A stretch of 32,000 nt of DNA from Methylorubrum extorquens (GCA_900234795.1 LT962688.1:720001-752000), one strand, 5' to 3'. Positions 4,509-23,111 are shown, numbered from the stretch's first letter. The notes: generated by a model from the letters alone, not told the origin. Numbers and translations are program-made.

Positions 4509-7334
4509 TTATCCGGCGACCGCTGTCTTGATCGCCGCGGCGACGCGCTTCACGCCGCCGGAGACATCACCGCCCTTGAGGTGGATTCTCAGCGCCCGGC
4601 GCTTGCGCTCGGACAGCACGGCGAAATCGCCCCGCGCCTGCGCCGCGATCACCGTCTTGAACCCGAGCTTGCGCCCGGGGATCGGCAGATCGGCCGAGGG
4701 GTCGGCAGTGATCTGGAGGAACACGCCCGAAGCGGGACCGCCCTTGTAGGCCTGCCCGGTCGAGTGGAGGAAGCGCGGGCCGAATTCCAGGCAAGTTGCG
4801 ACCTGCCGCGCGTCGCGCACCGTGAGCCGGGCCTCCTGCAACGCCGCGTGATGCGCCTCGTTGCGCTCCACATAGGCGAGCACGGCGACGTAGTCGCACG
4901 GCTTCACCCGCGCCAGATGCGCGGCCACGATCGCCTCGAAGCCCCCGCCGGGGCGCAGGACCTCCGCGTTGGCCGCATCGGCGTAGAGGGCGATCGTCGC
5001 GTCCTCGAAGATCGGCGTCTCGGCCGGCAGGGCGCCGGTCTCCTCGGCGCTGGCGAACAGCTTCTTCGTCTCGATCTTGCTCGCCTCGACGTCGGGCTGG
5101 TCGAACGGGTTGATGCCGAGCACCGCCCCGGCCACGGCGGTGGCGATCTCGAAGCGGAAGAATTCCTGCGGGAGCTGTTCCACCTTGTCGAGATCGATGC
5201 GCACCACCGGCTGCGCCTCGCTCTCTAGGATCTTCACCGCCTCGTCCTGGCGCGCATCGGCCTGGCTGGTCAGGCGGAGATACACGAACAGGCGGTCCTC
5301 GCCGTAGACGGCCGGTACGCCGACCGGCTCGCCCTCGACGGGGATGATGCCGACGCCTTCCTTGCCGGTCGACTCGGCGATGAGCTGCTCGGCCCAGGTG
5401 CCGAAGGTGCCGATGCCGGGGGAGGCGATGATCGTGATCTTGTCGCGCCCGAAATCCTTGGCCGCGACACCCATCGCCGCGCCGAGGCGCACGCCGGGAT
5501 TCACGGCGGGCGGCACCGCCGGCCCGCAGGAGCGGACCATCATCCGGGCGCTGTCGAGGAATTCGCGGATCTCGACGCCGGCCGCCGCCGCGGGAACGAG
5601 ACCGAAGGCCGAGAGCACGGAGTAGCGCCCGCCGATCTGCGGAACCCCCAGAAAGATCTTGCGGAAGCTGTCGTCCCTGGCGGCCTTTTCCATCGCCGAG
5701 CCGGGATCGGTCACGGCGACGAAATGCCGGCCCGCCTTATCGGCGCCGACGACCTCCTTCATCCGGCCGAGGAAGTAGTCGCGGAACACGTTGGGCTCGA
5801 GGGTCGAGCCGGACTTCGAGGCGACGATGAAGAGGGTCGTCTCGAGGTTCACCGCAGCCTCGACGGCGCGGACCTCGTCCGGGTCGGTCGAGTCGAGGAT
5901 GCGCAGCTTCGGGAAGCCCTCGCGGTGGCCGTAGGTGGCGGAGATCACCTCCGGGCCGAGGCTGGAGCCGCCCATGCCGAGCACCACCGCGTCGGTGAAG
6001 CCCTCGGCGCGGACCTCTTCGGCAAAGCTTTCGTAGAGATCGACCCGCTCCAGTTCGTCCTCGACGATGCGCAGCCAGCCGAGCCACTTGTCCTCGTCAC
6101 GGCCAGTCCAGACCGTGGCGTCGTGCGCCCAGAGCCGGCGGATCGCGCCGCTCGCGCGCCAGGACTCGACCGCCTTGTCGGTCGCCGCCTGGAGAGGCTC
6201 GTCGAACTTGAAGGTCTGCGCGTCGAGCCGGTGGTCGAGCAACGCCGCCCGCTTACCCGCGACCGCGCCGAGCAGGGCGTCGGCGGCATCGACGAAGAGC
6301 TGCACGCCCTCCTCGACGAGCTGGCGCGCCACCGCCTCGATGTCGATGCCGGCCTCGGCCAACCGTGCCATCACGGTCTCGGCCTCGCCGATATTCTCCT
6401 CCAGCGTCGCGCGCACCCGGCCGTGGTCACGGAACGCGTCCATGGTGGCCGGCGGCATGGTGTTGACGGTGTTCTTGCCGATCAACTCCTCGACGTAGAG
6501 CACGTCGGAATAGGCCTTGTTTTTGGTGCCCGTGGAGGCCCAGAGCAGGCGCTGCGCCTTCGCCCCCTTGGCCTCCAGCGCCGCCCATTTCGGCCCGGCG
6601 AAGATGCGCTTGTAGCGCTGGTAGGCGAGCTTGGCGTTGGCGATCGCCACCTTGCCCTTGAGATCCTCGTAGCCGCCGACCTCATCCAGCTTCTTGTCGA
6701 CGAGGCTGTCGATGCGGCTGATGAAGAAGCTCGCCACGCTCGCGACCTTCGAGACGTCGCCGCCCTTGGCGCCGAACTCGGTCAGCCCGTCGATGAAGGC
6801 GTTGGCGACCTCCTCGTAAACGCTCTGCGAGAACAGCAGCGTGATGTTGACCGAGATGCCCTCCGCCGTGAGCTGGCGGATCGCCGGCAGGCCGGCGGGG
6901 GTGGCCGGCACCTTGACCATGAGGTTGTCGCGCCCGACCGCCGCGTGCAGGCGGCGGGCCTCGTTCAGGGTCTCCTCGGTGTCGAGGGCGAGATAGGGGG
7001 AGACTTCGAGGCTGACATAGCCGTCGGCGCCGTCGCTGGTGTCGTAGACCCGGCGCAGGACGTCGGCCGCCGCCTGGATGTCGGCGATGGCGAGCCCCTC
7101 GTAGAGATCGATGACGCGGGCATCGCCCTGGCTCAGCACGGCCTTGAGGCTGTCGTCGTACTCGGCCGAGTGGCCGATCGCCTTCTCGAAAATGGCCGGG
7201 TTGGAGGTGACGCCGCGCAGGTCGTCCTTCTCCACCAACGCCTGGAGTTCACCCTTGGCGATGAAGCCGCGGGCCACGAAATCGAGCCAGACCGCCTGCT
7301 CGTGCTCGGCGAAGAGGGCGTTCAGCGCGTTCAT
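4509..7334 (-). CDS. tal: Bifunctional transaldolase / glucose-6-phosphate isomerase (Tal-Pgi fusion)
   Basis: 941 aa. The N-terminal transaldolase motifs are GVTSNPAIFEKAI and the Schiff-base lysine context MVKVPATPAGL. The C-terminal PGI/SIS motifs are VVLGMGGSSLGPEV and FIVASKSGSTLEP. Confidence 0.95.
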   Translation of the reverse strand: MNALNALFAEHEQAVWLDFVARGFIAKGELQALVEKDDLRGVTSNPAIFEKAIGHSAEYDDSLKAVLSQGDARVIDLYEGLAIADIQAAADVLRRVYDTSDGADGYVSLEVSPYLALDTEETLNEARRLHAAVGRDNLMVKVPATPAGLPAIRQLTAEGISVNITLLFSQSVYEEVANAFIDGLTEFGAKGGDVSKVASVASFFISRIDSLVDKKLDEVGGYEDLKGKVAIANAKLAYQRYKRIFAGPKWAALEAKGAKAQRLLWASTGTKNKAYSDVLYVEELIGKNTVNTMPPATMDAFRDHGRVRATLEENIGEAETVMARLAEAGIDIEAVARQLVEEGVQLFVDAADALLGAVAGKRAALLDHRLDAQTFKFDEPLQAATDKAVESWRASGAIRRLWAHDATVWTGRDEDKWLGWLRIVEDELERVDLYESFAEEVRAEGFTDAVVLGMGGSSLGPEVISATYGHREGFPKLRILDSTDPDEVRAVEAAVNLETTLFIVASKSGSTLEPNVFRDYFLGRMKEVVGADKAGRHFVAVTDPGSAMEKAARDDSFRKIFLGVPQIGGRYSVLSAFGLVPAAAAGVEIREFLDSARMMVRSCGPAVPPAVNPGVRLGAAMGVAAKDFGRDKITIIASPGIGTFGTWAEQLIAESTGKEGVGIIPVEGEPVGVPAVYGEDRLFVYLRLTSQADARQDEAVKILESEAQPVVRIDLDKVEQLPQEFFRFEIATAVAGAVLGINPFDQPDVEASKIETKKLFASAEETGALPAETPIFEDATIALYADAANAEVLRPGGGFEAIVAAHLARVKPCDYVAVLAYVERNEAHHAALQEARLTVRDARQVATCLEFGPRFLHSTGQAYKGGPASGVFLQITADPSADLPIPGRKLGFKTVIAAQARGDFAVLSERKRRALRIHLKGGDVSGGVKRVAAAIKTAVAG

Positions 7335-7404
7335 CTCTAGCGTCCTCGCGTAATTCTTGTGCGTCCCCCGTGCCCGGTAGATAGGGCGGTCGCGGGCGCC
7401 TTAA

Positions 7405-7540
7405 CCCTCCCCCCTCTGCGGGGGAGGGTGCCCTGCGGATGCAGGGCGGGAGAGGGGCCGACTCAGATCTTTCCGGAGCCGGCGCTCCCCTCACCCGACC
7501 CGCTTCGCGGGCCACCCTCTCCCGCTTCAGGGGGAGAGGG
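7405..7540. repeat. Cluster of GGGGAGGG/GGGGAGAGGG-type palindromic hairpins in the tkt to tal/pgi spacer
   Basis: Hairpins at 7405-7428 (CCCTCCCC/GGGGAGGG), 7430-7447 (GCCCTGC-GGAT-GCAGGGC) and 7515-7540 (CCCTCTCCC/GGGAGAGGG). They belong to the same family as 4242-4267, 4477-4500 and 22178-22198. Confidence 0.7.
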
Positions 7541-7556
7541 CTCAACGTCTGCGCCC

Positions 7557-9632
7557 TTACTTCTTGTGCTTGGCCGCCTGCGCGCGGGCCGCCTCGATGA
7601 CCTTCTCGGCGGTGAAGCCGAACTTGCCGAGCAGGTCCTTGATCGGGGCCGAGGCGCCGAAGGTATGCATGCCGACGATCGAGCCCGAGGAGCCGGCGTA
7701 GCGGTCCCAGCCGATGACGCTGCCCTGCTCCACGGCCACGCGCGCCAGAACCTCCGGCGGCAGGACGCTGTTGCGGTAGGCCTCGTCCTGGCGCTCGAAC
7801 AGCTCCCAGGACGGCATCGAGACGACGCGCGCCTTCACGCCTTCGCCCTTCAGGGTCTCGTAGGCGCCGACGCAGAGCTGCACCTCGGAGCCCGTGCCGA
7901 TCAGGATCACGTCCGGCGTGCCCTCGCTATCGGCGAGCACGTAGGCGCCCTTCGCGGTGCCCGAGGCGGGAGCGTATTTCGAGCGGTCGAAGGTCGGCAG
8001 CGGCTGGCGCGACAGGGCCAGCACCGCCGGCTGATTTTTCAGGGAGAAGATCACCCGGTAGGCTTCGGCCACCTCGTTGGCGTCGGCCGGGCGCAGGGTC
8101 AGGAGACCGGGGATGCAGCGCAGCGAGAGGATCTGCTCCACCGGCTGGTGGGTCGGCCCATCCTCGCCCACGCCGATCGAGTCGTGGGTGAAGATATGGA
8201 AGACCGGCAGCTCCATCAGCGAGGCGAGCCGGATCGGCGGGCGCATGTAGTCGGCGAAGACGAGGAAGGTCGCGCCGTAGGCGCGCAAGCCCACGAGCCC
8301 GAGCCCGTTCACGATCGAGCCCATGGCGTGCTCGCGCACGCCGAAATGGATGTTGCGCCCGCCCGGCTCGAACGGGGTCAGCGAGCCCGCGCCCTCGAAG
8401 GTGAGGTTCGACTTGTTGGACGGCGCCAGATCGGCCGAGCCGCCGAGCAGGAACGGCACGTGCTGGGCGATGGCGTTGAGCACCTTGCCCGAGGATTCGC
8501 GCGTCGCGAGCCCCTTGGCGTCGGACTCGAAGACCGGGATGTCGCGGTCCCAGCCCTCCGGCAGACGGCCTTCGAGGAAGGCCGACAGTTCCTCGGCATG
8601 CTCCGCATCCGCCGCCTTGGCAGCCTCGAAGAAGCCCTGCCACTGACTGTAGAGCGCGGCACCGCGCTTGCCGATGCCGTCGGCGAAGGTGTCGTAGACG
8701 CCGTCGGGTACCAAGAACTCGGAATCCTCCGGCCAGCCATAGGCGCGCTTGGCGCCCTTCACCTCGTCGGGGCCGAGCGCGTCGGAATGGGCCTTCGACG
8801 TGTTCTGCTTGGTCGGCGCGCCGTAGCCGATGATCGAGTTGACGATGATCAGCGTCGGGCGGTCGCTCGATTGCAGGAAGGTCTCGAGCGCCGAGGCGAT
8901 GGCGTGGGTGTCGTTGGCATCGGCCACCCGCAGCACCTGCCAGCCATAGGCGAGGAAGCGGGCGGCGACCTCTTCCGAGAAGGCGAGTTCGGTGTGGCCC
9001 TCGATGGTGATGGTGTTGTTGTCGTAGATCCAGCACAGGTTCGACAGGCGCAGGTGCCCGGCGATCGAGGCGGCCTCCTGGCTGACGCCCTCCATCAGGT
9101 CGCCGTCCGAGCAGATGGCGTAGACGTTGTAGTCGAACAGCGGCAGGTCGGGCCGGTTCAGGCGCTCGCCCTTGAAGCGGCCACCCATCGCCATACCGAC
9201 GGAGTTCGCCACGCCCTGGCCCAGCGGCCCGGTGGTGGTCTCGACGCCGGTGGTGAAGTGGTATTCCGGATGGCCCGGCGTGCGGCTGTCGAGCTGCCGG
9301 AATTTCTTGATGTCGTCCAGCGAGATGGCGGGGGAATTGCCGCCGTCCTTCTCGGCCACGCGGGCCAAGTGCAGCAGCCCGTAGAGCAGCATTGAGGCGT
9401 GACCGGCCGAGAGCACGAAGCGGTCGCGGTTCGGCCAATGCGGATGGGCCGGATCGTAGCGCAGATACCGGTTCCACAGGGTGTAGGCGACGGGCGCCAG
9501 CGCCATCGGTGCGCCGGCATGTCCGGAATTGGCCTTCTGCACCGCGTCGATCGCGAGCGTCCGGATCGTGTCGATCGCGAGCTTGTCGCCCTGGCTCAGG
9601 GCCGCCTTCGGGCTCGTGTCTGCACCGCTCAT
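7557..9632 (-). CDS. tkt: Transketolase
   Basis: 691 aa. It carries SGHAGAPMALAP near the N-terminus and the TPP-binding motif GDGDLMEGVSQEAASIAGHLRLSNLCWIYDNNTITIEG. Confidence 0.95.
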   Translation of the reverse strand: MSGADTSPKAALSQGDKLAIDTIRTLAIDAVQKANSGHAGAPMALAPVAYTLWNRYLRYDPAHPHWPNRDRFVLSAGHASMLLYGLLHLARVAEKDGGNSPAISLDDIKKFRQLDSRTPGHPEYHFTTGVETTTGPLGQGVANSVGMAMGGRFKGERLNRPDLPLFDYNVYAICSDGDLMEGVSQEAASIAGHLRLSNLCWIYDNNTITIEGHTELAFSEEVAARFLAYGWQVLRVADANDTHAIASALETFLQSSDRPTLIIVNSIIGYGAPTKQNTSKAHSDALGPDEVKGAKRAYGWPEDSEFLVPDGVYDTFADGIGKRGAALYSQWQGFFEAAKAADAEHAEELSAFLEGRLPEGWDRDIPVFESDAKGLATRESSGKVLNAIAQHVPFLLGGSADLAPSNKSNLTFEGAGSLTPFEPGGRNIHFGVREHAMGSIVNGLGLVGLRAYGATFLVFADYMRPPIRLASLMELPVFHIFTHDSIGVGEDGPTHQPVEQILSLRCIPGLLTLRPADANEVAEAYRVIFSLKNQPAVLALSRQPLPTFDRSKYAPASGTAKGAYVLADSEGTPDVILIGTGSEVQLCVGAYETLKGEGVKARVVSMPSWELFERQDEAYRNSVLPPEVLARVAVEQGSVIGWDRYAGSSGSIVGMHTFGASAPIKDLLGKFGFTAEKVIEAARAQAAKHKK

Positions 9633-9682
9633 GGAGTTACCGTCTTTCTCGCTTCCATCGCCCGCCGTCTGACGGAGTGCGA

Positions 9683-11542
9683 CTACTGCGCTGCGATGGA
9701 TTCGCCTACCCTCGACTCGGATACGTCCGCGCCGCTGCCCCGTTCCTTCGCAGGACCGGTCGCGCGGCTGTAATTGAGGATCGTGTTGACGAGCGCAACA
9801 TGCGTGAACGCCTGAGGGAAGTTCCCCACCAGCCGTTTCGCGTGCACGTCGTACTCTTCGGAGACCAATCCGAGGTCGGTGCAGACACCGATCAGGCGCT
9901 CGATCAGCGCGCGAGCCTCGTCGCAGCGGCCGAGGCCGATCAGATTGTCGGCGTACCAGAAGCTGCAGGGCAGGAACGCGCCCTCGTTGCCGGGCAGGCC
10001 GTCGGTGGTCTGGCCTTCGGTCTCGTAGCGCAGGATGAACCCCTCGCGCATCAGATGCGATTCGACCGCCGCCACCGTGCCGACGACGCGGGGATCGTCC
10101 TGGGGCAGGAAGCCCATATGCGCGATGAGCAAGAGGCTCGCATCGAGCGCCTTGCTTCCGTAGGATTGGACGAAGCTGTTCAGCTCCGGGTCGAACCCCT
10201 TGGCACAGACCTCGGCGTGGATCTCGTCGCGGATCGCCCGCCAGTGCGCGACCGGCGCTTCGACGGTGTGCGGATCGTCGTCGCCCATCAGCTCGACGCT
10301 GCGGATCGCCCGGTCGAAGGCCACCCAGGCCATCACCTTGGAATGGACGAAGTGGCGCCGCCCGCCGCGCACCTCCCAGATGCCCTCATCGGGCTGGCGC
10401 CACGCCGTCTCGAGGTGCTTGATGATCGCTTGGCCGACGCGCAGGCCGTCCTTGTTCTGCCCCATGCCGCGGGCACGGGCCTGGAACAGGGCGTCGAACA
10501 ATTCCCCGTAGACATCGAGCTGGAACTGGGCGATCGCCGCGTTGCCGACGCGCACGGGCCGCGAACCCTCGTAGCCGGGCAGCCAGTCGAGTTCGATCTC
10601 CGGCAGAAGCCGCTCGCCGGCGATGCCGTAGAGGATATGCGCCTGCTCCGGGTTGCCGGCCACCGCGCGGGTCAGCCAGTCGCGCCAGGCGCGGGCCTCC
10701 TCGATGTAGCCCGAATCCATCAGCGCCAGCAGCGTGAAGGTCGAATCGCGCAGCCAGCAGAAGCGGTAGTCCCAGTTGCGCACCCCGCCGAGTTCTTCCG
10801 GCAGCGACGTGGTGGGCGCGGCGACGATACCCCCGGTCGGTTGGTAGATCAGCGCCTTCAGCGTCAGGAGCGAGCGGCGCAGGATGGCGTCCCAGGGTGT
10901 CTGGAGCATGCAGCGGCTCGACCACTCGCGCCAGAACCGGTTGGTGTCGTCGAGCCAGCGGCGCGGCTCGATCGGTGCAGGATCGTCCTCGTGCGAGGCG
11001 CCGTAGCTCAGCACGAAGCGGACCGCGTCGCCCTTGTAGACCGTGAATTCCGAGACCGTGGTCTGGTGGGCGGAGCCGCGCATCGGCGCGTTGGTGCGCA
11101 GGACCACCTTGTGCGGCCCGGAGATGGCGCGCAGATCCCCGAGTTCGCTGCGCGAGACCCAGGGCACCGCCGAGCCGTAATCGAAGCGCACGGCCAGTTC
11201 CATCCGCATCGCCATCCGGCCACGCACGCCCTCGACGAGGCGGATCACGTGGCTGCCGTCGCCGACGGGCATGAAGTCGGTGACGCGGACCTCGCCCTCA
11301 TGGGTCTTGTGCGTGGTCTCCAGCACCAGCGAGCCGCCGCGGTAGCGCCAGGAATGCTGTGCCCCCTCCGCCGCCGGAGCGAGCTTCCAGAAGCCGTGCT
11401 CCTCCGTTCCGAGAAGGCTCGCGAACAGGGCCGAGGCATCGAAGCGCGGCATGCACAGCCAGTCGATGCTGCCGTCGCGGCCGACCAGGGCCGCGGTGCG
11501 CCCGTCGCCGATCAGGGCGTAATCCTCGATCCGTCCCGCCAT
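9683..11542 (-). CDS. Glycoside hydrolase family 15 protein (glucoamylase/trehalase-like)
   Basis: 619 aa. The N-terminus is IEDYALIGDGRTAALVGRDGSIDWLCMPRFD. The catalytic-domain motifs are NWDYRFCWLRDS and GAFLPCSFWYADNL. It lies 50 nt upstream of tkt on the same strand. Confidence 0.9.
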   Translation of the reverse strand: MAGRIEDYALIGDGRTAALVGRDGSIDWLCMPRFDASALFASLLGTEEHGFWKLAPAAEGAQHSWRYRGGSLVLETTHKTHEGEVRVTDFMPVGDGSHVIRLVEGVRGRMAMRMELAVRFDYGSAVPWVSRSELGDLRAISGPHKVVLRTNAPMRGSAHQTTVSEFTVYKGDAVRFVLSYGASHEDDPAPIEPRRWLDDTNRFWREWSSRCMLQTPWDAILRRSLLTLKALIYQPTGGIVAAPTTSLPEELGGVRNWDYRFCWLRDSTFTLLALMDSGYIEEARAWRDWLTRAVAGNPEQAHILYGIAGERLLPEIELDWLPGYEGSRPVRVGNAAIAQFQLDVYGELFDALFQARARGMGQNKDGLRVGQAIIKHLETAWRQPDEGIWEVRGGRRHFVHSKVMAWVAFDRAIRSVELMGDDDPHTVEAPVAHWRAIRDEIHAEVCAKGFDPELNSFVQSYGSKALDASLLLIAHMGFLPQDDPRVVGTVAAVESHLMREGFILRYETEGQTTDGLPGNEGAFLPCSFWYADNLIGLGRCDEARALIERLIGVCTDLGLVSEEYDVHAKRLVGNFPQAFTHVALVNTILNYSRATGPAKERGSGADVSESRVGESIAAQ

Positions 11543-14301: not shown

Positions 14302-14398
14302 GTGCACCGCATGAAATCCTGGGGCCGCTGAGCGCGGGCAGCGCAGCAAACCCGTGATGCCGGCGCTCCGAGAGGGGCGGCACGCTCTTCAGCGCAGT

Positions 14399-14415
14399 TG
14401 GCACGGCTCCTGCAG
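14399..14415 (+). promoter_or_regulatory. Sigma-54 (RpoN) promoter of the nrtA operon
   Basis: TGGCACG-GCTC-CTGCA versus the consensus TGGCACG-N4-TTGCW. The -24 element matches 7 of 7 and the -12 element 4 of 5, with correct spacing, about 155 nt upstream of the nrtA ATG. Confidence 0.65.
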
Positions 14416-14427
14416 AGATGTTCGCAC

Positions 14428-14474
14428 GGGCTCGTCAACGACGACGCGCCCCAAACGTCAGCAAGGCCGCTGAT
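14428..14474 (+). promoter_or_regulatory. Candidate ANTAR (NasT) RNA target: two tandem hexaloop hairpins
   Basis: P1 is 14428-14451 with stem GGGC(t)CGTC/GACG(c)GCCC and loop AACGAC. P2 is 14457-14474 with stem GTCAGC/GCTGAT and loop AAGGCC. Both loops have A at position 1 and G at position 4, and a 5-nt linker separates them. Confidence 0.5.
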
Positions 14475-14534
14475 CCGGACTGCCCGCACGCGACGAAGGT
14501 CGATCGCGCAGGCGATCCCGGACGGCGGCCTTTT
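14465..14534 (+). terminator. Leader terminator/attenuator overlapping ANTAR hairpin P2
   Basis: The long-range stem GGCCGCTG(a)TCCGG (14465-14478) pairs with CCGGACGGCGGCC (14518-14530) and encloses an inner hairpin. TTTT follows at 14531-14534. The 5' arm shares 14465-14474 with P2, so the two structures are mutually exclusive. Confidence 0.5.
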
Positions 14535-14568
14535 CCATGTGCAGACAGCGCACCGGAGCGAAGAGCGG

Positions 14569-15861
14569 ATGAGCATCGATCACGGCAACACGACCCGCCG
14601 CGGCGTCCTCAAGGGGGCGGCGGCTGCCCTCGCCCTCGCGGGTGCGGCTCGTGCCGCCTTGCCGGCCGGTGCCTTCGCGCAGGGCGGGGGGCCGGAGGTG
14701 AAGGGCGCCAAGCTCGGCTTCATCGCGCTCACCGATGCGGCGCCGCTCTTTGTCGCCAAAGAGAAGGGCATCTTCGCCAAGTACGGCCTGCCCGATACCG
14801 AGGTGCTGAAGCAGGCAAGCTGGGGCACGACCCGCGACAACCTCGTGCTCGGCTCCGAGGGCAACGGCATCGACGGCGCTCACATCCTCACCCCGATGCC
14901 CTACCTGATCTCCGCCGGCCGGGTGACGCAGAACAACGTGCCGGTGCCGATGTACATCATGGCCCGGCTCAACCTGAACGGTCAGTGCATCTCGATCGCC
15001 AAGGAGCATATCGACCACAAGATCGGGCTCGACACCAAGCCGTTCAAAGCCGCGCTGGAAGCCAAGAAGGCGTCGGGCAAGGCGGTGAAGGCCGCCATGA
15101 CCTTCCCCGGCGGCACCCACGACCTCTGGATCCGCTACTGGCTCGCCGCCGGCGGCATCGACCCCGACAAGGACATCGAGACCATCGTCGTGCCGCCGCC
15201 CCAGATGGTGGCGAACATGAAGGTCGGCACGATGGACTGCTTCTGCGTCTGCGAGCCGTGGAACGAGCAGCTCATCCACCAGGGCATCGGCTACACCGCC
15301 ATCACCACGGGCGAACTCTGGAAGGATCACCCGGAGAAGGCCTTCGCCATGCGCGCGGCTTGGGTCGACAAATACCCCAACGCCGCCAAGGCCCTGCTGA
15401 TGGCGGTGATGGAGGCCCAGCAATGGTGCGACAAGCCCGAGAACCGCGACGAGATGGCGGCGATCGTGGCCAAGCGCCAGTGGATCAACGTGCCGGTCGC
15501 CGACGTCGTCGACCGCATGAAGGGCAAGTTCGACTACGGCACCGGCCGGGTCGTCGAGAACAGCCCGCACATCATGAAGTTCTGGGGCGACAACGCCTCG
15601 TACCCGTATCAGTCGCACGACCTCTGGTTCCTCACCGAGGACATCCGCTGGGGCAAGTTCGACGCCCAGACCGACACCAAGGCGCTGATCGCCAAGGTCA
15701 ACCGTGAGGATCTCTGGCGCGAGGCCGCCAAGGCGCTCGGCGTCGCGGCGATCCCGACCTCCACCTCGCGCGGCGTCGAGACGCTGTTCGACGGCAAGGT
15801 CTTCGATCCGGAAAACCCCGCCGCCTACCTCAACAGCCTCGGCATCAAGAAGGTCGCGTGA
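14569..15861 (+). CDS. nrtA: Nitrate ABC transporter periplasmic substrate-binding protein NrtA
   Basis: 430 aa from ATG 14569. It has a twin-arginine signal (TRRGVLKGAAAALALAGAARAALPAGAFAQ) and the NrtA-type motif KLGFIALTDAAPLFVAKEKGIFAKYGL. The track's upstream extension (14398) is Arg-rich junk. Confidence 0.9.
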   Translation: MSIDHGNTTRRGVLKGAAAALALAGAARAALPAGAFAQGGGPEVKGAKLGFIALTDAAPLFVAKEKGIFAKYGLPDTEVLKQASWGTTRDNLVLGSEGNGIDGAHILTPMPYLISAGRVTQNNVPVPMYIMARLNLNGQCISIAKEHIDHKIGLDTKPFKAALEAKKASGKAVKAAMTFPGGTHDLWIRYWLAAGGIDPDKDIETIVVPPPQMVANMKVGTMDCFCVCEPWNEQLIHQGIGYTAITTGELWKDHPEKAFAMRAAWVDKYPNAAKALLMAVMEAQQWCDKPENRDEMAAIVAKRQWINVPVADVVDRMKGKFDYGTGRVVENSPHIMKFWGDNASYPYQSHDLWFLTEDIRWGKFDAQTDTKALIAKVNREDLWREAAKALGVAAIPTSTSRGVETLFDGKVFDPENPAAYLNSLGIKKVA

Positions 15862-16718
15862 TGGCTACCGGAGCAACGCTCACCGCAACCCGCGAACGTG
15901 CCGCCAAGGCCCGCACGCCCTTCATCACCATGGCCGGGCTGCGCGGCGTTGCCGCCCGCGTCCTGCCGCCGCTCGTCGTCCTGGCGGGCTTCCTGCTCCT
16001 GTGGGAGGTGCTGTGCTCCTCCCCCACCGCCGGCCTGCCGCCGCCCTCGCGGGTGGTGACGGAAGCCTGGGACATCATCATCGATCCGTTCTACGACAAC
16101 GGCGGCACCGACAAGGGCCTGTTCTGGCATATCGCCGCGAGCCTGAAGCGCGTGGCGCTGGGCTTCTCGCTGGCGGTGGTGGCGGGCGTGATGCTCGGCA
16201 CGCTGGTCGGCCAGTCCGACTGGGCGATGCGCGGGCTCGACCCGATCTTCCAGATCCTGCGTACGATCCCGCCGCTGGCGTGGCTCCCGCTCTCGCTGGC
16301 CGCCTTCCGCGACGGCCAACCCAGCGCGATCTTCGTGATCTTCATCACCTCGATCTGGCCGATCATCATCAACACCGCGGTCGGCATCCGCAACATTCCG
16401 CAAGACTACCGCAACGTCGCCGCGGTCATCCGGCTGAACCCGATCGAGTTCTTCGTGAAGATCATGCTGCCCTCGGCGGCCCCCTACATCTTCACCGGTC
16501 TTCGCATCGGCGTCGGCCTGTCCTGGCTCGCCATCGTCGCGGCCGAAATGCTGATCGGCGGCGTCGGGATCGGCTTCTTCATCTGGGACGCGTGGAACTC
16601 GTCGCACATCTCCGAGATCATCGTCGCCCTCGTCTATGTCGGGCTCATCGGCTTCGTCCTCGACCGGATGGTCGCCGGGCTCGGCGTGCTCGTGACCCGC
16701 GGCACCAGCGCAGCGTGA
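15861..16718 (+). CDS. nrtB: Nitrate ABC transporter permease NrtB
   Basis: About 285 aa with multiple transmembrane helices. The BPD-transport permease loop is ILRTIPPLAWLPLSLAAF. The start ATG 15861 overlaps the nrtA TGA by 1 nt, and GTG 15858 is an alternative. Confidence 0.9.
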   Translation: MATGATLTATRERAAKARTPFITMAGLRGVAARVLPPLVVLAGFLLLWEVLCSSPTAGLPPPSRVVTEAWDIIIDPFYDNGGTDKGLFWHIAASLKRVALGFSLAVVAGVMLGTLVGQSDWAMRGLDPIFQILRTIPPLAWLPLSLAAFRDGQPSAIFVIFITSIWPIIINTAVGIRNIPQDYRNVAAVIRLNPIEFFVKIMLPSAAPYIFTGLRIGVGLSWLAIVAAEMLIGGVGIGFFIWDAWNSSHISEIIVALVYVGLIGFVLDRMVAGLGVLVTRGTSAA

Positions 16719-16730
16719 GGGATTAAGAAC

Positions 16731-17525
16731 ATGGCACATCTCTCCCTCTCCCAGGTCGGCATCACGTTTCATCGCGGCGGCAAGGCATCGGAAGTGCTGC
16801 GCGACGTGAACCTCGACATCGCCAAGGGCGAGTTCGTCTCGATCATCGGGCATTCCGGCTGCGGCAAGTCGACGGTGCTCAACATCGTCGCCGGCCTGCT
16901 CAAGGCCTCGACCGGCGGCGTGCTGCTGGACGGGCGCGAGGTGAACGCCCCCGGCCCCGACCGCGCGGTGGTGTTCCAGAACCACTCGCTGCTGCCCTGG
17001 CTCACCGTGCGCGAGAACGTGGCGCTCGCCGTCGACAAGGTCTCGAAGGGCAAGAAGACCCGCGCCGAGCGCACCCAGTGGATCGAGCACAACCTCGCGC
17101 TCGTGAACATGGTGCACGCCGCCGACAAGCGCCCGAACGAGATCTCGGGCGGCATGAAGCAGCGCGTCGGCATCGCCCGCGCGCTCGCGATGGAGCCGAC
17201 CGTGCTGCTCATGGACGAGCCGTTCGGCGCGCTCGACGCGCTGACCCGCGCCCACCTTCAGGACCAGACCATGGAGATCCAGCAGCGGCTGAAGAACACC
17301 GTCATCATGATCACCCACGATGTGGACGAGGCGGTGCTGCTCTCCGACCGCATCGTGATGATGACGAACGGCCCGTCGGCGACCATCGGCGAGATCCTGC
17401 CCGTGCCGCTGGCGCGGCCTCGCCGCCGGCTCGACCTCGTGGAGGATGCCACCTACGTCCACGCCCGCGCCGCGGTGCTGGAATTCCTCTACGCCCGCCA
17501 CGCCAAGCCTGCTCTCGCTGCCTGA
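16731..17525 (+). CDS. nrtC: Nitrate ABC transporter ATP-binding protein
   Basis: 264 aa. Walker A is GHSGCGKST, the signature is ISGGMKQRVGIARAL and Walker B is LLMDEPFGALD. Confidence 0.9.
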   Translation: MAHLSLSQVGITFHRGGKASEVLRDVNLDIAKGEFVSIIGHSGCGKSTVLNIVAGLLKASTGGVLLDGREVNAPGPDRAVVFQNHSLLPWLTVRENVALAVDKVSKGKKTRAERTQWIEHNLALVNMVHAADKRPNEISGGMKQRVGIARALAMEPTVLLMDEPFGALDALTRAHLQDQTMEIQQRLKNTVIMITHDVDEAVLLSDRIVMMTNGPSATIGEILPVPLARPRRRLDLVEDATYVHARAAVLEFLYARHAKPALAA

Positions 17526-17550: not shown

Positions 17551-18771
17551 ATGAGCGTGAAGGACAGACTCGTCGTCGTCGGCAACGGCATGGCCTCGCT
17601 CCGCTTCCTCGAGCGGCTGACGGAGCGCGCGCCGGGCCGCTACGACGTGACGGTGGTCGGCGCCGAGCCGGTGGCGGCCTATAACCGGGTGCTGCTCTCC
17701 TCGCTGCTCGGCGGCGAGGTGGACGAGGCGGCCTGCGGCTTCCGTCCGCTCCCCTGGTACGAGGAGCACGGCATCCGCCTCGTCACCGGCGCACCGGTGA
17801 CCGAGATCGACCGGGCGAACCGCATCGCCCTCGTCGGCTCCGCCCATGTGCTGCCCTACGACAAGCTGGTGCTGGCGGTGGGCTCGCTGCCGATCCGGCT
17901 GCCGCTGCCCGGCATCGACCTGCCCGGCGTCCTCACCTTCCGCGATTTCGCCGATGTGGCGGCGATCCGCAAAGCCGCCGTCGAGCATGCCAAGGCGGTG
18001 GTGATCGGCGGCGGGCTTCTGGGCCTGGAGGCCGCGGTCGGGCTCGCCCGGCTCGGGGTCGACACCACCCTGATCCACGTCATGGACCGAGTGATGGAGC
18101 GCCAGCTCGACCACGCGGCCGCCCGCCTCGTGCGCACGGCGATGGAAGCGCGCGGCGTCAAGGTGATGCTGTCCGCCGACACCGCCGCGATCGAGGGCGA
18201 CGGACGCGTCGAGCGCCTGCGGATGAAGGACGGCACCGTGATCCCGGCCGACCTCGTGGTGATGTCGGTCGGCATCCGCGCCTCGACCGCCCTGGCGCAG
18301 TCCTGCGGGCTCGCCTGCGGGCGCGGCATCACGGTGGACGACCGGATGACCACCTCCGATCCGGCGATCCATGCGCTCGGCGAATGCGCCGAGCACAGGG
18401 GCGTCGTTTACGGCCTCGTCGAGCCCGCCTACGAGCAGGCCGAGGTGCTGTCGCGGGCGCTTCTCGGCGAGGCGGCGACCTATCCCGGCACATCCCTTGC
18501 CACCAGCCTCAAGGTGTCGGGCCTGCCGGTCTTCTCGGCCGGATTGGTCGATACGCCCGAGGGTGCCGAGGCCGTCGTGATGCACGATGCCGCCGCCGGC
18601 CTCTACCGCAAGCTGATCATCGCCGACGGCCGCCTCGCGGGGGCGGTCTTCGTCGGCGATATCGCGGAGCAGGCGCGCTGCAAGGAGCTGATCCGCTCCG
18701 GCGCGCCGCTCTCCCCTGACGACCGGGACGACTTGATGTTCGGCCCGGCCCCGAAAACCCTCGCAGCGTGA
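17551..18771 (+). CDS. FAD-dependent NAD(P)H oxidoreductase, NirB N-terminal-like (Flp-like)
   Basis: 406 aa from ATG 17551 (RBS GAAGGGGGA 17532-17540). The dinucleotide folds are VVVGNGMAS and AVVIGGGLLGLEA, and GECAEHRG is typical of NirB/rubredoxin-reductase-type flavoproteins. It has no sirohaem or Fe-S domain. Confidence 0.85.
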   Translation: MSVKDRLVVVGNGMASLRFLERLTERAPGRYDVTVVGAEPVAAYNRVLLSSLLGGEVDEAACGFRPLPWYEEHGIRLVTGAPVTEIDRANRIALVGSAHVLPYDKLVLAVGSLPIRLPLPGIDLPGVLTFRDFADVAAIRKAAVEHAKAVVIGGGLLGLEAAVGLARLGVDTTLIHVMDRVMERQLDHAAARLVRTAMEARGVKVMLSADTAAIEGDGRVERLRMKDGTVIPADLVVMSVGIRASTALAQSCGLACGRGITVDDRMTTSDPAIHALGECAEHRGVVYGLVEPAYEQAEVLSRALLGEAATYPGTSLATSLKVSGLPVFSAGLVDTPEGAEAVVMHDAAAGLYRKLIIADGRLAGAVFVGDIAEQARCKELIRSGAPLSPDDRDDLMFGPAPKTLAA

Positions 18772-18782
18772 GTGAGGCAGCG

Positions 18783-20573
18783 ATGGCAGACGAATTTAAC
18801 GCCGAGCAGAAGCGCTACCTGGAGGGCTTCGCCTCCGGCATCGCCGCGGCCCGCATGACCGGCGGCCTCGCCGCGGGCCAAGCCCCGGCGAGCGCGCCGG
18901 CCGAGCCCACGGGCCCGGACGCGATCCACATCAAGGCACAGATCCGCACCGTGAAGGAGGGCGGCAAGCTCTGCGACCAGGAGAAGTGGAAGCGCGCCGA
19001 GAACCCGTTCGACGGCCATAACCGGCTGAAGGCGGAGGCCGCCACGGGCAAGGCTCCGAAGCCCGAGGACAACTTCCGCTGGCGCTACCACGGCATGTTC
19101 TGGGTCGCGCCGACCCAGACCTCCTACATGTGCCGGATCCGGGTTCCGAACGGCATCCTGCACCACTGGCAGTTCGCCGGTCTCGCCGACCTCGCGGATG
19201 CCCATGGCGGCGCCTACAGCCACGTCACCACCCGCGCGGGCCTGCAGGTGCGCGAGATCGCGCCCGAGCACGCCCAGCCCTTCCTCGACGGGCTGATCGA
19301 TCTCGGCCTGACCGCGCAGGGCGCGGGCGCCGACAACATCCGCAACGTCACCGGCTCGCCGGCCGCCGGCATCGACGCGCAGGAACTGCTGGACACCCGT
19401 CCCCTCACCAAGTCCTGGCACAACTGGATCCTGAACGACCGCTCGCTCTACGGCCTGCCGCGCAAGTTCAACGTCTCCTTCGACGGCGGCGGCGTGATGC
19501 CGGCGCTCGAAGAGACGAACGACATCGGCTTCCAGGCGATCCAGGTGCTGGAGGGCGCCCCGGTCGCGCCGGGCGTCTGGATGCGCCTCGTGCTCGGCGG
19601 CATCTCGGGCCACAAGGATCTGGCCCGCGACACGGGGATCGTCCTCAGGCCCGAGGACTGCAACCTTGTGGCCGACGCGATCATCCGGGTCTTCATCGAG
19701 AACGGCGACCGGACCAACCGCAACAAGGCCCGGATGAAGTACGTCCTCGACGCCTGGGGCTTCGACAAGTACATCGCCGCCGTCGAGGAGAAGCTCGGGC
19801 GCAAGCTCGACCGGGTCGACGCCGCCCATGTCGCCCCGCGCCGGCCGACCGACCGCTTCAGCCATGTCGGCGTCCATGCCCAGGTCCAACCCGGCCTGAA
19901 CTGGGTCGGCGTGGTGCTCCCCGTCGGCAAGATGACCACCGACCAGATGCGCGGGCTGGCGAAGATCGCCGCGGAATGCGGCGACGGCCAGATCCGCATG
20001 ACGGTCTGGCAGAACTTCATCTTCTCCGGCGTGCCGGACGCGAAGGTGGCCGAGGTCGAGGAACGGGTGCTCGCGCTCGGGCTCACGGTGAAGGCCGCCG
20101 GCATCCGCTCGGGCCTCGTCGCCTGCACCGGCTCGCGCGGCTGCAAGTTCGCCGCCTCCGACACCAAGGGCCACGCGATGATCATCGCGGACCATGTCGA
20201 GCGGACCGTGCCGAACCTCGACGTGCCGGTGAACGTGCACCTCACCGGCTGCCACCATTCCTGCGCCCAGCACTACATCGGCGATATCGGCCTGATCGGC
20301 GCCAAGGTCGTCGTCTCGGAGGAGGGCGACACCGTCGAGGGCTACGACGTCGTGGTCGGCGGTGGTTTCGCCGAGAACCCGAAGATCGGCACCGAGATCT
20401 GGAAGGCGGTGAAGGCTGAAGACGCGCCCTCGCGCGTCGAAGCGCTGCTCAACGCCTATCTCGCCCGCCGCCAGGGCCCGGAGGAGAGCTTCCAGGCCTT
20501 CACCGCGCGCACCGGCCCCGAGGCCCTGCGCGACGCCGCCGAAGAACAACCCGCCCTCAAGGCCGCCGCATGA
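18783..20573 (+). CDS. nirA: Ferredoxin-type nitrite/sulfite reductase hemoprotein (NirA family)
   Basis: The sirohaem-[4Fe-4S] ligand pattern is CTGSRGC (Cys codons 20124, 20142) and CHHSC (20250, 20262). It has a duplicated NIR_SIR-like architecture. ATG 18783 follows GAGG (18774-18777), and GTG 18768 (a GTGA overlap with the upstream gene) is an alternative. Confidence 0.9.
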   Translation: MADEFNAEQKRYLEGFASGIAAARMTGGLAAGQAPASAPAEPTGPDAIHIKAQIRTVKEGGKLCDQEKWKRAENPFDGHNRLKAEAATGKAPKPEDNFRWRYHGMFWVAPTQTSYMCRIRVPNGILHHWQFAGLADLADAHGGAYSHVTTRAGLQVREIAPEHAQPFLDGLIDLGLTAQGAGADNIRNVTGSPAAGIDAQELLDTRPLTKSWHNWILNDRSLYGLPRKFNVSFDGGGVMPALEETNDIGFQAIQVLEGAPVAPGVWMRLVLGGISGHKDLARDTGIVLRPEDCNLVADAIIRVFIENGDRTNRNKARMKYVLDAWGFDKYIAAVEEKLGRKLDRVDAAHVAPRRPTDRFSHVGVHAQVQPGLNWVGVVLPVGKMTTDQMRGLAKIAAECGDGQIRMTVWQNFIFSGVPDAKVAEVEERVLALGLTVKAAGIRSGLVACTGSRGCKFAASDTKGHAMIIADHVERTVPNLDVPVNVHLTGCHHSCAQHYIGDIGLIGAKVVVSEEGDTVEGYDVVVGGGFAENPKIGTEIWKAVKAEDAPSRVEALLNAYLARRQGPEESFQAFTARTGPEALRDAAEEQPALKAAA

Positions 20574-22175
20574 CCCAGCACGTCGCGCCCCCGCTCGTTC
20601 TCATCCCCGAGAGCGCCCCCTTCAACGCCGACCAGCGCTCCTGGCTGTCCGGCTACTTCGCCGCGCTGCTGGGCCCCGCCGTGGAAGGCGCCACCGCGCT
20701 CGCCCCCGGCGAGGCGCCGTCCACGGGTCCGAAGCTCGCCGACAACGACGACGCGCCCTGGCACGACCCGTCGATGCCGATCAACGACCGCATGGCGATC
20801 GCCAAGGACCGCTCCGAGCCGCAGAAGCTGATGGCCGCCATGGCCCAGCAGGATTGCGGGCAGTGCGGCTACAATTGCGCCGACTATGCCAACGCGATCT
20901 TCCTCAAGAGCGAGGAGCGGCTGAACCTTTGCCAGCCCGGCGGCAAAGAAACGCTTCGGATGCTCAAGAAGCTCGACGAGGAGTTCGGCGCCGCGGGGGG
21001 CACGGCCGCTCCGAAGGCGGAGGCGGGCGACGCTCCGAAGAAGGAGCCGGAACTCGGGCCGCTCGGCTATTGCCGCGAGAACCCGGTCGAGGCGACCTTC
21101 CTCTCCCGCACGCGCCTCAACGCGCCGGGCGGCGAGAAGGAAACGTGGCACATCGAGATCGACCTGCGGGATACGCCGATCACCTACGAGGCGGGCGATT
21201 CCCTCGGCCTGTTCCCCGCCAACGCCCCGGCGCTGGTGGATGCAGTGATCGCCGAACTCGGCACGCGGCCCGAGCGGATGATCGCGGGCAAGACCCTGCG
21301 CGACCGGCTGCTAACCGAGTATTCCCTGGGTGCTGCGCCGGACAACCTCTACCAACTCCTCTCGCTCCTGACCTCGGGTGCCGCCCGGAAGAAGGCGCAG
21401 GCGCTGGCGGCCGGCGAGGATCCGGACGGCGATGCGCAGCATCTCGACGTGCTCGGTGCGCTCCACAAATTCCCCGGTGCGCGCCCCGATGCCGAGGTCT
21501 TCCTAGAGGCGCTCGACGAGTTGCAGCCGCGGCTCTACTCGATCTCCTCCTCGCCGAAGATGGATGAGGGCCGGGTTTCGCTCACCGTCGATGCGGTGCG
21601 CTACAACCATCGCTCGCGCCTGCGCCTCGGCGTCGCCTCCACGCATCTGGGCGAGCGTCTCCCGGAGCAGACCAAAGTCCGGATCTACCTGCAGAAGGCG
21701 CACGGCTTCGGCCTGCCGGCGGATGCAGCCAAGGACGTGATCATGTGCGGCCCCGGCACCGGCGTCGCCCCGTTCCGCTCCTTCCTGCGTGAGCGCGCGG
21801 CCACGAAGGCCCCCCGGCCGCAACTGGCTGTTCTACGGCCACCAGCGGCAAGCGACCGACTTCTTCTACAAGGACGAGCTGAACGGCCTGAAGGAAGACA
21901 AGGTGCTGACCCGCCTCTCGCTCGCTTGGTCGCGTGACGGCACGGAAAAGACCTACGTGCAGGACCGCATGCGCGAGAACGGCGCCGAGCTGTGGAAATG
22001 GCTGGAGGGCGGCGCCCATTTCTATGTCTGCGGCGATGCCAAGCGCATGGCCAAGGACGTGGAGCGGGCGATCATCGACGTCGCCGCCCAGTTCGGCGGC
22101 AAGAACCCCGACGAGGCCGTGGCCTACCTCGCCGCCCTCAAGAAGAGCGGGCGCTATCAGGCCGACGTGTACTGA
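20570..22175 (+). pseudogene. CysJ-like FAD/NADPH flavoprotein (sulfite-reductase alpha-like) lacking the FMN domain; reading frame broken by one extra C at 21810-21815
   Basis: The FAD/NADPH motifs are RLYSISSSP, GPGTGVAPFRSF, YVCGDAKRMAKDV and the terminal ...RYQADVY. The frame switches at AAGGCCCCCCGGCCGC. Removing one C gives ...RAATKAPGRNWLFYGHQ..., which is colinear, as I recall it, with E. coli CysJ ...RAADEAPGKNWLFFG. An ATGA overlap joins it to nirA. It may be intact in reality if the C6 run is an assembly error. Confidence 0.85.
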
Positions 22176-22177
22176 GG

Positions 22178-22198
22178 GGGAGGGGGTTTTCCCCTCCC
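22178..22198. terminator. Bidirectional stem-loop between convergent cysJ-like and lysR genes
   Basis: GGGAGGGG-GTTTT-CCCCTCCC is an 8-bp stem starting 3 nt after the stop at 22175. It belongs to the same GGGGAGGG family as the other palindromes. Confidence 0.45.
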
Positions 22199-22204
22199 AC
22201 CGCC

Positions 22205-23111
22205 TCAGGCCGCCGGGTTGACCCGCGGATCGGCGCGCAGCCGTGCCGCGGCGAGATCGACGAAGGCGCGGGTCTTGGCCGGCGCCCGCCGTCCCTCGGG
22301 ACTGACGACGTGGATCGGAACCGGCGCCTCCTCGTCATCCGTGAGCAGGATGCGCAGGCGCCCTTCCGCCACCGCCGACGCGACCTGATAGGACAGCAGA
22401 CGCGCGATCCCCCATCCATCGAGGGCCGCCGCCAGCGACGCATCGACCGTGTTGCAGACGAGCCGGGCATGGACGCCCACCGTGGTGCGCCCCCTCGGGC
22501 CCGAACCGCCATTCCGGCAGGGCACCGGGGTTTGACGCGCCGATCACCGCGTGATCGCGCAGGTCGCGCGGTGTTTCGGGCACGCCGTGCCGCTCCAAAT
22601 AGCTCGGTGCGGCGCAGACGACCCGGCGCACGCTGCCGACGCGGGTCGCCGTGAGCCCGGAATCGGCCAGATGCCCGATCCGCACGCCGACATCGATGCC
22701 CTCCTCGATCAGGTTGACGATCCGGTCGAGGAACAGCGCGCGGACCGCCACCGCCGGGTAGCGCGCGAGATAATCGGTCACCACCGGCAACACGTAGAGC
22801 CGCCCGAATTGCACCGGGGCCGTCAGCGTCAGGACACCGGTCGGCGTCGCGGTCGAGCCCGCGGCGGTGGCCTCCGCTTCCGCGATCTCGGCGAGGATCC
22901 GGCGGCAATCCTCCAGATAGCGCCCGCCGGCCTCGGTGAGCTTCACGGAGCGCGTGGTGCGGATGAACAGCCGCGCCCCGATCACCGCTTCGAGTGCCGC
23001 CACGGCGCGCGTGACCGCGGCCGGGCTCATGGACAGCGCACGGGCCGCCCCGGCAAAGCCGCCGCTCTCGGCAACCCGCACGAACACCCGCATCCCTTGC
23101 AGCCGGTCCAT
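22205..23111 (-). pseudogene. LysR-family transcriptional regulator, frame broken by one extra base near 22490-22494
   Basis: The N-terminal HTH is MDRLQGMRVFVRVAESGGFAGAARALSMSPAAVTRAVAALE. The C-terminal LysR substrate-binding region (...TTVGVHARLVCNTVDASLAAALDGWGIARLLSYQV...KTRAFVDL) continues in another frame (track ORF 22205-22525). Deleting one G from GAGGGGGCG restores about 296 aa. Confidence 0.85.

Follow-up and report, generated by a model that had tools for sequence, protein, structure and literature searches.

A predicted [4Fe-4S] domain replaces the FMN domain in a CysJ-like flavoprotein paired with NirA, a candidate electron donor for nitrite assimilation in Methylorubrum extorquens

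The DNA analyzed here is a stretch of 32,000 nucleotides from Methylorubrum extorquens (GCA_900234795.1, LT962688.1:720001-752000), referred to as the window, and positions are counted from its first letter. A gene on the plus strand of the window, at 20570-22175, encodes a CysJ-like flavoprotein of 534 residues if five cytosines (C5) are read at position 21810. A four-cysteine domain of a [4Fe-4S] type occupies the place of the flavin mononucleotide (FMN) domain of CysJ in this protein. The gene directly follows nirA, which codes for a nitrite reductase of the NirA family, and the two genes share the sequence ATGA, in which the start codon of the second overlaps the stop codon of the first. 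The CysJ-like protein is likely the reductase subunit of an assimilatory nitrite reductase that has two components and depends on NAD(P)H, and in which the [4Fe-4S] domain would relay electrons to NirA.

The protein begins with a short N-terminal peptide (residues 13-35; 20606-20674, plus strand, like all features of this gene), followed by linker 1 (residues 36-54; 20675-20731), the four-cysteine domain (residues 55-140; 20732-20989), linker 2 (residues 141-165; 20990-21064), and a reductase module. The putative cluster ligands are Cys96 (20855-20857), Cys99 (20864-20866), Cys103 (20876-20878), and Cys121 (20930-20932). They span 20855-20932 and form the pattern C-x2-C-x3-C-x17-C-x-PGG. Translation from 20570 reproduces exactly the coordinates that the original prediction, made from the sequence of the window, had given for this cluster. 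The flavin adenine dinucleotide (FAD)-binding and connection domains and the start of the NADPH-binding domain extend from residue 166 to about residue 415 (21065-21815; PF00667, E 2e-26; PF00175). The FAD-binding domain begins at GYCRENP, residue 166; Pfam FAD_binding_1 matches from residue 170, and NAD_binding_1 is also matched. The remainder of the NADPH-binding domain lies in the next frame (21816-22175; PF00175, E 1e-9; NF004859) and ends in ...YQADVY and a stop codon.

The whole protein belongs to NF004859 (PRK06214), a family that NCBIfam catalogues as "sulfite reductase subunit alpha". The match reaches 680.3 bits over model positions 1-420, with a further 239 bits over positions 418-539 in the next frame. 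The match is full-length and above the curated cut-off of 432 bits, and a search of the genome agrees. Relatives of the protein are 531-541 residues long.

The original prediction recognized no flavodoxin motif in the residues before the FAD-binding domain, from 1 to about 165, and this is borne out. A Pfam search of the CysJ-like protein for a flavodoxin family or FMN site returned none at E ≤ 0.1. An AlphaFold2 model of residues 1-165, built on an alignment of 40 sequences, is all-helical, with helices at residues 20-34, 71-77, 83-91, 103-111, and 125-141. The model contains no β-strand, which excludes a flavodoxin fold for this region. The first of these helices falls within the N-terminal peptide. 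The predicted local distance difference test (pLDDT) score is above 90 over about residues 60-140 and below 50 at residues 37-50 and 143-165, that is, within both linkers.

Sequence profiles relate the four-cysteine domain to the FdI domain of RnfB and the N-terminal domain of CoFeSP. PF04060 ("FeS") matches residues 95-123 with 20.7 bits (E 3.5e-4; gathering cut-off 23 bits). Nine relatives were scored with the same profile: P0164, P0135, P0149, and P0173 reach 23.2-25.2 bits and the others 19.4-22.4 bits. Positions 38-87 of the rnfB model TIGR01944 match residues 85-135 at E 1.6e-8. When a profile of the N-terminal fragments was compared with the PDB, only RnfB was matched (8ahx_B, E 0.11), and the cysteines of the module align with those of RnfB.

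The predicted structure leads to the same two proteins. A structure search independent of Foldseek, over 48,161 representative chains, yielded a single match with Z ≥ 5, the RnfB chain 9eri_B from the Acetobacterium woodii Rnf complex. Residues 35-92 of this chain superimpose on the model with Z 5.3 and a root mean square deviation (rmsd) of 2.3 Å over 57 residues. Re-examination of Foldseek's own list, in which 9fzy_F stands at rank 2, led to the N-terminal [4Fe-4S] domain of the CoFeSP large subunit. Residues 5-59 of 9fzy_F superimpose with Z 6.5 and an rmsd of 1.8 Å over 54 residues.

Several other matches were set aside. The phmmer matches of residues 1-167 to PDB sequences were all marginal. 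The top one, the AMP-dependent synthetase 8ra0_A (E 0.11), is taken as chance because its alignment covers the cysteine region but leaves the ligands unconserved. In the wide structure search, the matches to ion channels, TPR, and other helical proteins at Z 3-4 reflect generic helix packing. A feature search of the protein atlas returned clusters of PF04060 only, with scores of 0.78-0.83, which are treated as leads and not as evidence.

The four cysteines are invariant in 40 diverse relatives, among which the identity of the N-terminal region falls to about 38%. Of the best 80 of at least 589 related loci that encode the N-terminal module, found by a scan of one genome per species, 77 keep the complete C-x2-C-x3-C-x17-C-x-PGG pattern and the remaining three have broken open reading frames (ORFs). 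The invariance and the fixed spacing show that the pattern is not due to chance. Although the individual scores are modest, sequence profiles, predicted structure, and motif agree on a module of the PF04060/RnfB-FdI/CoFeSP N-terminal type, which is a known type of redox domain. The original prediction left the metal open between an iron-sulfur cluster and zinc; homology to the [4Fe-4S] domains of RnfB (FdI) and CoFeSP favors a [4Fe-4S] cluster. The conservation of the cysteines and the HMM and structure searches, by which that prediction could have failed, thus speak for it, and the domain that was matched is a redox domain.

The FdI domain of RnfB is a small helical domain that has a CxxCx5Cx17C motif in common with CoFeSP, is held by two flexible linkers, and has been proposed to shuttle electrons by swinging (PMC9588780). 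The module described here shares with RnfB FdI and CoFeSP the arrangement C-x2-C-x(3-5)-C-x(16-17)-C followed by PGG and the helical fold, and with RnfB FdI the tethering by flexible linkers. Unlike in RnfB and CoFeSP, it is fused to a CysJ-type FAD/NADPH reductase and carries a conserved N-terminal extension (APWHDP...R74), and the protein lacks a membrane anchor, further ferredoxin modules, and a corrinoid domain. The same cysteine domain, 52-53% identical, also follows DUF1667 in two other proteins, P0276 (1154 residues) and P0209 (297 residues). In P0276, it lies inside a large multi-domain iron-sulfur flavoprotein (Pyr_redox_2, Fer4_20, DHODB_Fe-S_bind), which represents a second architecture.

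The genome also encodes a canonical CysJ of 595 residues elsewhere, with its flavodoxin domain present. Residues 166-534 of the CysJ-like protein are 39% identical to residues 236-595 of this CysJ over 372 residues (E 2e-80), and the complete FAD/connection/NADPH module is therefore retained. The alignment with TIGR01931 begins only at model position 220, and its score of 197.5 bits falls short of the cut-off of 668. Judged by TIGR01931 and NF008197, which define the CysJ diflavin class, the protein possesses the FAD/connection/NADPH module and lacks the FMN flavodoxin domain. The N-terminal peptides are alike as well, with ...APF...QRAWLTGFLAGL in the canonical CysJ and APFNADQRSWLSGYFAAL in the CysJ-like protein (E 0.019). 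Residues P13, A16, P17, F18, Q22, W25, and L26 of the peptide are invariant in the alignment of 40 relatives. The comparison points to a clean exchange, in which only the FMN domain was swapped for an FdI-type domain and the flexible tethers were kept. The replacement of the FMN domain by a cysteine module, as originally proposed, is thus borne out at the level of sequence.

Both linkers vary in length among relatives, and Ala, Gly, and Pro make up about 60% of their residues. In 120 full-length relatives, linker 1 is 18-57 residues long and the distance from the cysteine motif to GDS is 62-96 residues. Linker 2, the tether to the FAD-binding domain, is rich in Ala, Gly, Pro, Lys, and Glu.

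In E. coli CysJ (SiRFP), the N-terminal part is an octamerization domain, and a linker of 36 residues holds the FMN (Fld) domain, which acts as a mobile carrier (10.1101/2024.06.14.599029). The CysJ-like protein has a comparable layout, with a short N-terminal peptide, a one-electron carrier on a long flexible linker, and an FAD/connection/NADPH module ending in ...DVY. A sirohaem/[4Fe-4S] haemoprotein is encoded next door in both cases (CysI in E. coli). The two systems differ in that the carrier here is an all-helical, four-cysteine domain of the [4Fe-4S] type instead of an FMN flavodoxin, and the partner is a NirA-family nitrite reductase that comes first in gene order.

BoxA, phthalate dioxygenase reductase, and BenC also combine a path from pyridine nucleotide through flavin to an iron-sulfur center in one polypeptide with a separate catalytic partner. 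The part of the protein resembling ferredoxin-NADP reductase (FNR) gives weak matches to BoxA and BenC. Reductases of this type contain 2×[4Fe-4S] bacterial-ferredoxin or plant-type [2Fe-2S] domains. Unlike the CysJ-like protein, they lack a CPR/CysJ connection domain, and none of their iron-sulfur families matched its N-terminal module.

The NirA-family protein encoded directly upstream (18768-20573, plus strand; NF007126, 1057 bits; PF01077, PF03460) is a sirohaem/[4Fe-4S] nitrite reductase and the presumed electron acceptor. The related loci, mostly from Hyphomicrobiales, preserve this arrangement strictly: a NirA-family gene lies directly upstream of the CysJ-like gene in all of the best 80. 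Among 151 genomes sampled evenly from the order, the module occurs in 18, and exactly those 18 hold a NirA that scores above 900 bits, always adjacent. The partnership with NirA is proposed on the basis of this adjacency (80/80 loci) and co-occurrence (18/18 genomes). As in a two-component sirohaem reductase, the reductase gene is both co-located and co-inherited with the haemoprotein gene. In the metal relay from FAD to NirA that the original prediction suggested, the link to NirA is based on these counts, and cluster content and electron transfer are predicted features.

Three further genomes (G410, G398, and G386, the last only 75% complete) contain lower-scoring NirA homologs (645-726 bits) and no iron-sulfur CysJ-like partner. 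Two of the three homologs lack the first ~50 model positions, the region that contains a peptide shared with the reductase. An extra N-terminal stretch of about 50 residues is present in the NirA subgroup found next to the CysJ-like gene.

The shared peptide is apparent in the window. The N-terminal peptide of NirA, FNAEQKRYLEGF (18780-18820), resembles that of its partner, FNADQRSWLSGY (20606-20674), with E 6e-5. The motif F-x-x-[DE]-Q-[KR]-x-[WY]-L-x-G-[FY] is present in 76 of the 80 partner ORFs and fits 60 of the 80 NirA ORFs; of the remaining 20, many are truncated where the contig ends. The peptide common to NirA, its partner, and the N terminus of canonical CysJ may be a shared assembly helix.

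Some proteins contain the NirA domains and then the cysteine module in a single ORF (P0271-P0275 and P0277), and P0271, P0273, and P0274 contain the FAD-binding domain too. Such proteins may have arisen by natural fusion or may reflect indel artefacts where the ATGA overlap lies, and they lend weak support only, because all are singletons. Long open frames of 1173-1176 residues in genomes G383 and G424 suggested NirA-reductase fusions and were not counted; in G383, the coordinates place the two genes in different frames.

The proposed mechanism builds on an architecture that retains an N-terminal peptide of the CysJ type and the whole FAD/connection/NADPH module, and in which an 85-residue RnfB-FdI/CoFeSP-type [4Fe-4S] domain, between two flexible Ala/Gly/Pro-rich tethers, stands in for the FMN domain. 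NADPH would transfer a hydride to FAD, which would pass single electrons to the tethered [4Fe-4S] domain. This domain would then swing to NirA and reduce its [4Fe-4S]-sirohaem center. Six such deliveries would be made for each nitrite reduced to ammonium. NirA and the CysJ-like protein would together constitute an NADPH-dependent nitrite reductase on the plan of sulfite reductase.

The identities of the domains, the conservation of the ligands, the flexible nature of the tethers, and the strict pairing with nirA are shown by the present analysis. Drawing on what the FMN domain does in the sulfite reductase of E. coli and FdI in Rnf, we infer the type and potential of the cluster, the mobility of the domain, complex formation, the direction in which electrons flow, and the function of the N-terminal peptides that both subunits share. 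A preference for NADPH is suggested by a retained ...WSRD...YVQD segment, which we take to be a sign of such preference in the CPR/CysJ family.

The NirA systems of cyanobacteria and plants, and those proposed for Bradyrhizobium and P. aeruginosa, depend on ferredoxin. They have the same type of catalytic subunit and follow the same logic, from NADPH through FAD and a one-electron iron-sulfur carrier to sirohaem. Unlike systems of free ferredoxin and FNR, the carrier and the FNR would here be one dedicated polypeptide encoded together with nirA.

A number of points weigh against this mechanism. In domains of this kind, the [4Fe-4S] cluster may lie at a very low potential, so that reduction by NADPH/FAD would be uphill. 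Several of the scores behind the assignment of the domain are low: the PF04060 score of the window protein is slightly below the Pfam cut-off, solved RnfB chains are matched only weakly at the sequence level (E 0.11-0.8), Z values of 5-6.5 are modest for a small helical domain, and Foldseek against the PDB gave nothing at E ≤ 0.001, with best rows at E ~6. The CysJ-like gene reads as frameshifted in this assembly. Literature searches found no paper characterizing any member of NF004859. Lastly, related NirA enzymes have been published as ferredoxin-dependent (PMC4724949; PMC8092218 for the P. aeruginosa enzyme).

A broader interpretation appears evenly balanced between acceptance and doubt. 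The pair may represent an unrecognized class of NADPH-dependent assimilatory nitrite reductase holoenzyme, in which the FMN domain is swapped for a mobile FdI-type domain and the helices shared by NirA and the reductase, both carrying the peptide motif given above, build a hetero-oligomer like the sulfite reductase dodecamer. If this is true, the 'ferredoxin-dependent' NirA enzymes of Bradyrhizobium, Methylobacterium, and many other Hyphomicrobiales would be self-sufficient with NADPH.

The break in the reading frame is a feature that the original prediction had not mentioned. The ORF starting at 20570 leaves its frame at a run of six cytosines (C6; 21810-21815, plus strand), turns to nonsense after ...KAP (about residue 415), and continues for the last 120 residues in the next frame, up to 22175. 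All other sources read C5 at this site. Four independent public sequencing runs covering 21650-22650 (X1, X2, X3, and X5) have one base fewer at 21810, and X1, at a depth of 99, derives from a near-identical isolate. A relative with 99% identity is intact at 534 residues, and the FAD and C-terminal parts share one frame in the related loci that were checked. The neighboring, divergent LysR-family regulator gene (22205-23111, minus strand) is likewise split, near 22490-22494, by a one-base insertion in a G5/C5 run, and runs X1 and X2 omit one base at 22490.

Since the breaks at 21810 and 22490 both lie in homopolymers, an assembly error is indicated. The C6 frameshift is most likely such a homopolymer error, and the gene is treated as encoding 534 residues. 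With one cytosine fewer in four runs, neither a programmed frameshift nor a genuine pseudogene is likely. That the gene is truly frameshifted in this strain and its module functionless here is accordingly regarded as highly improbable. The assembly, a single contig of 5.7 Mb, does read C6, and the protein atlas contains the truncated ORF of 455 residues letter for letter. Against this stand the shorter run in all four data sets, including that of the near-identical isolate, the similar omission in the lysR gene in two of them, the intact relative, and the clustering of the indels in homopolymers, which is typical of technical error.

Other functions of the pair can be envisaged, each of which is judged less likely than a path from NADPH through FAD and [4Fe-4S] to NirA. 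The cysteine module may not be a relay to NirA at all and could instead be a structural zinc site, a cluster that senses O2, NO, or iron, or part of a ferredoxin-NADP reductase that works with a separate soluble ferredoxin. Four-cysteine sites can bind zinc, the cluster in this protein is a predicted one, and published NirA enzymes take plant-type ferredoxin in vitro (PMC8092218). However, the module is homologous to two structurally characterized [4Fe-4S] electron-transfer domains, with the cysteines aligned. There is no obvious reason why an FNR-like module that carries a one-electron carrier of its own should require a free ferredoxin, and no ferredoxin gene lies between the conserved pair, which abut, in the 80 loci. 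This group of alternatives is considered unlikely.

The name of NF004859 implies a different substrate, with the NirA-family protein reducing sulfite and the CysJ-like protein acting as its alpha subunit. NirA-family and sulfite reductase haemoproteins are homologous, CysI and Sir models match weakly, and the 'NirA' of Mycobacterium tuberculosis is a sulfite reductase. Such a role is nevertheless very unlikely here. The genome holds a separate canonical CysJ with a flavodoxin domain, and the pair follows the nitrate transporter genes nrtABC on the same strand, with nrt genes occurring in 30-45 of the 80 related loci. A Bradyrhizobium strain mutated in NirA lacks nitrite reductase activity and no longer grows on nitrate (PMC4724949). 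The candidate counterpart of the CysJ-like gene in that organism, bll4570, is induced together with nirA and nrtA.

The window contains one more potential donor, a NirB-N-terminal-like (Flp-like) FAD/NAD(P)H oxidoreductase encoded between nrtC and nirA (17551-18771, plus strand; TIGR02374 positions 1-390, E 8e-121; Pyr_redox_2, Rubredoxin_C). NAD(P)H reductases of its class occur in nas operons (PMC4724949). If this protein were the real donor of NirA, the CysJ-like protein would have another use, for example with a nitrate reductase encoded elsewhere or in the detoxification of NO. Its gene is present in only 45 of the 80 loci, in contrast to 80 of 80 for the CysJ-like gene, and a Bradyrhizobium flp mutant grows normally on nitrite (PMC4724949). 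That the Flp-like protein is the donor is considered very unlikely, and its gene is regarded as operon context only.

The nrtABC genes of a nitrate ABC transporter, likewise operon context, lie at 14398-17525 (plus strand; NMT1_2, TIGR01183 ntrB, TIGR01184 ntrCD). Upstream of the nas cluster, on the minus strand, the region 4509-11542 contains genes for a fused transaldolase/phosphoglucose isomerase, a transketolase, and a GH15 glucoamylase/trehalase-like protein, which are apparently unrelated.

Bradyrhizobium NirA (bll4571) is required for the assimilation of both nitrate and nitrite, Flp, the one flavoprotein tested there, is dispensable for growth on nitrite, and ferredoxin was assumed as the donor (PMC4724949). 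In the library searched, literature searches for a CysJ-like protein with NirA and for an RnfB-like domain with nitrite reductase found no description of the domain make-up or function of the protein, and bll4570 turned up solely as an entry in a table of one expression study. The architecture is not unknown to databases, since the family and both domains are catalogued and UniRef names for some members include "Ion-translocating oxidoreductase complex subunit B", along with 'assimilatory sulfite reductase (NADPH)...'. It is the functional reading that appears undescribed. The current product names are at odds with the conserved context of nitrate and nitrite assimilation and are probably misnomers.

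Alphaproteobacterial assimilatory NirA has been described as ferredoxin-dependent, yet we know of no physiological donor identified for it. The CysJ-like gene is the invariant neighbor of this NirA subgroup in at least several hundred species, and its product has exactly the parts needed for electron transfer from NADPH to a sirohaem enzyme. In many soil and leaf alphaproteobacteria, the protein is probably the NADPH-driven donor of NirA that has gone unrecognized. Confirmation would correct the widespread database name "sulfite reductase subunit alpha". It would also show that a [4Fe-4S] domain has taken the place of the FMN domain in a natural CysJ/CPR scaffold, a case that can help to understand and engineer electron transfer by domain shuttling, and would name the missing electron donor of nitrite assimilation in plant-associated Methylobacterium and Bradyrhizobium.

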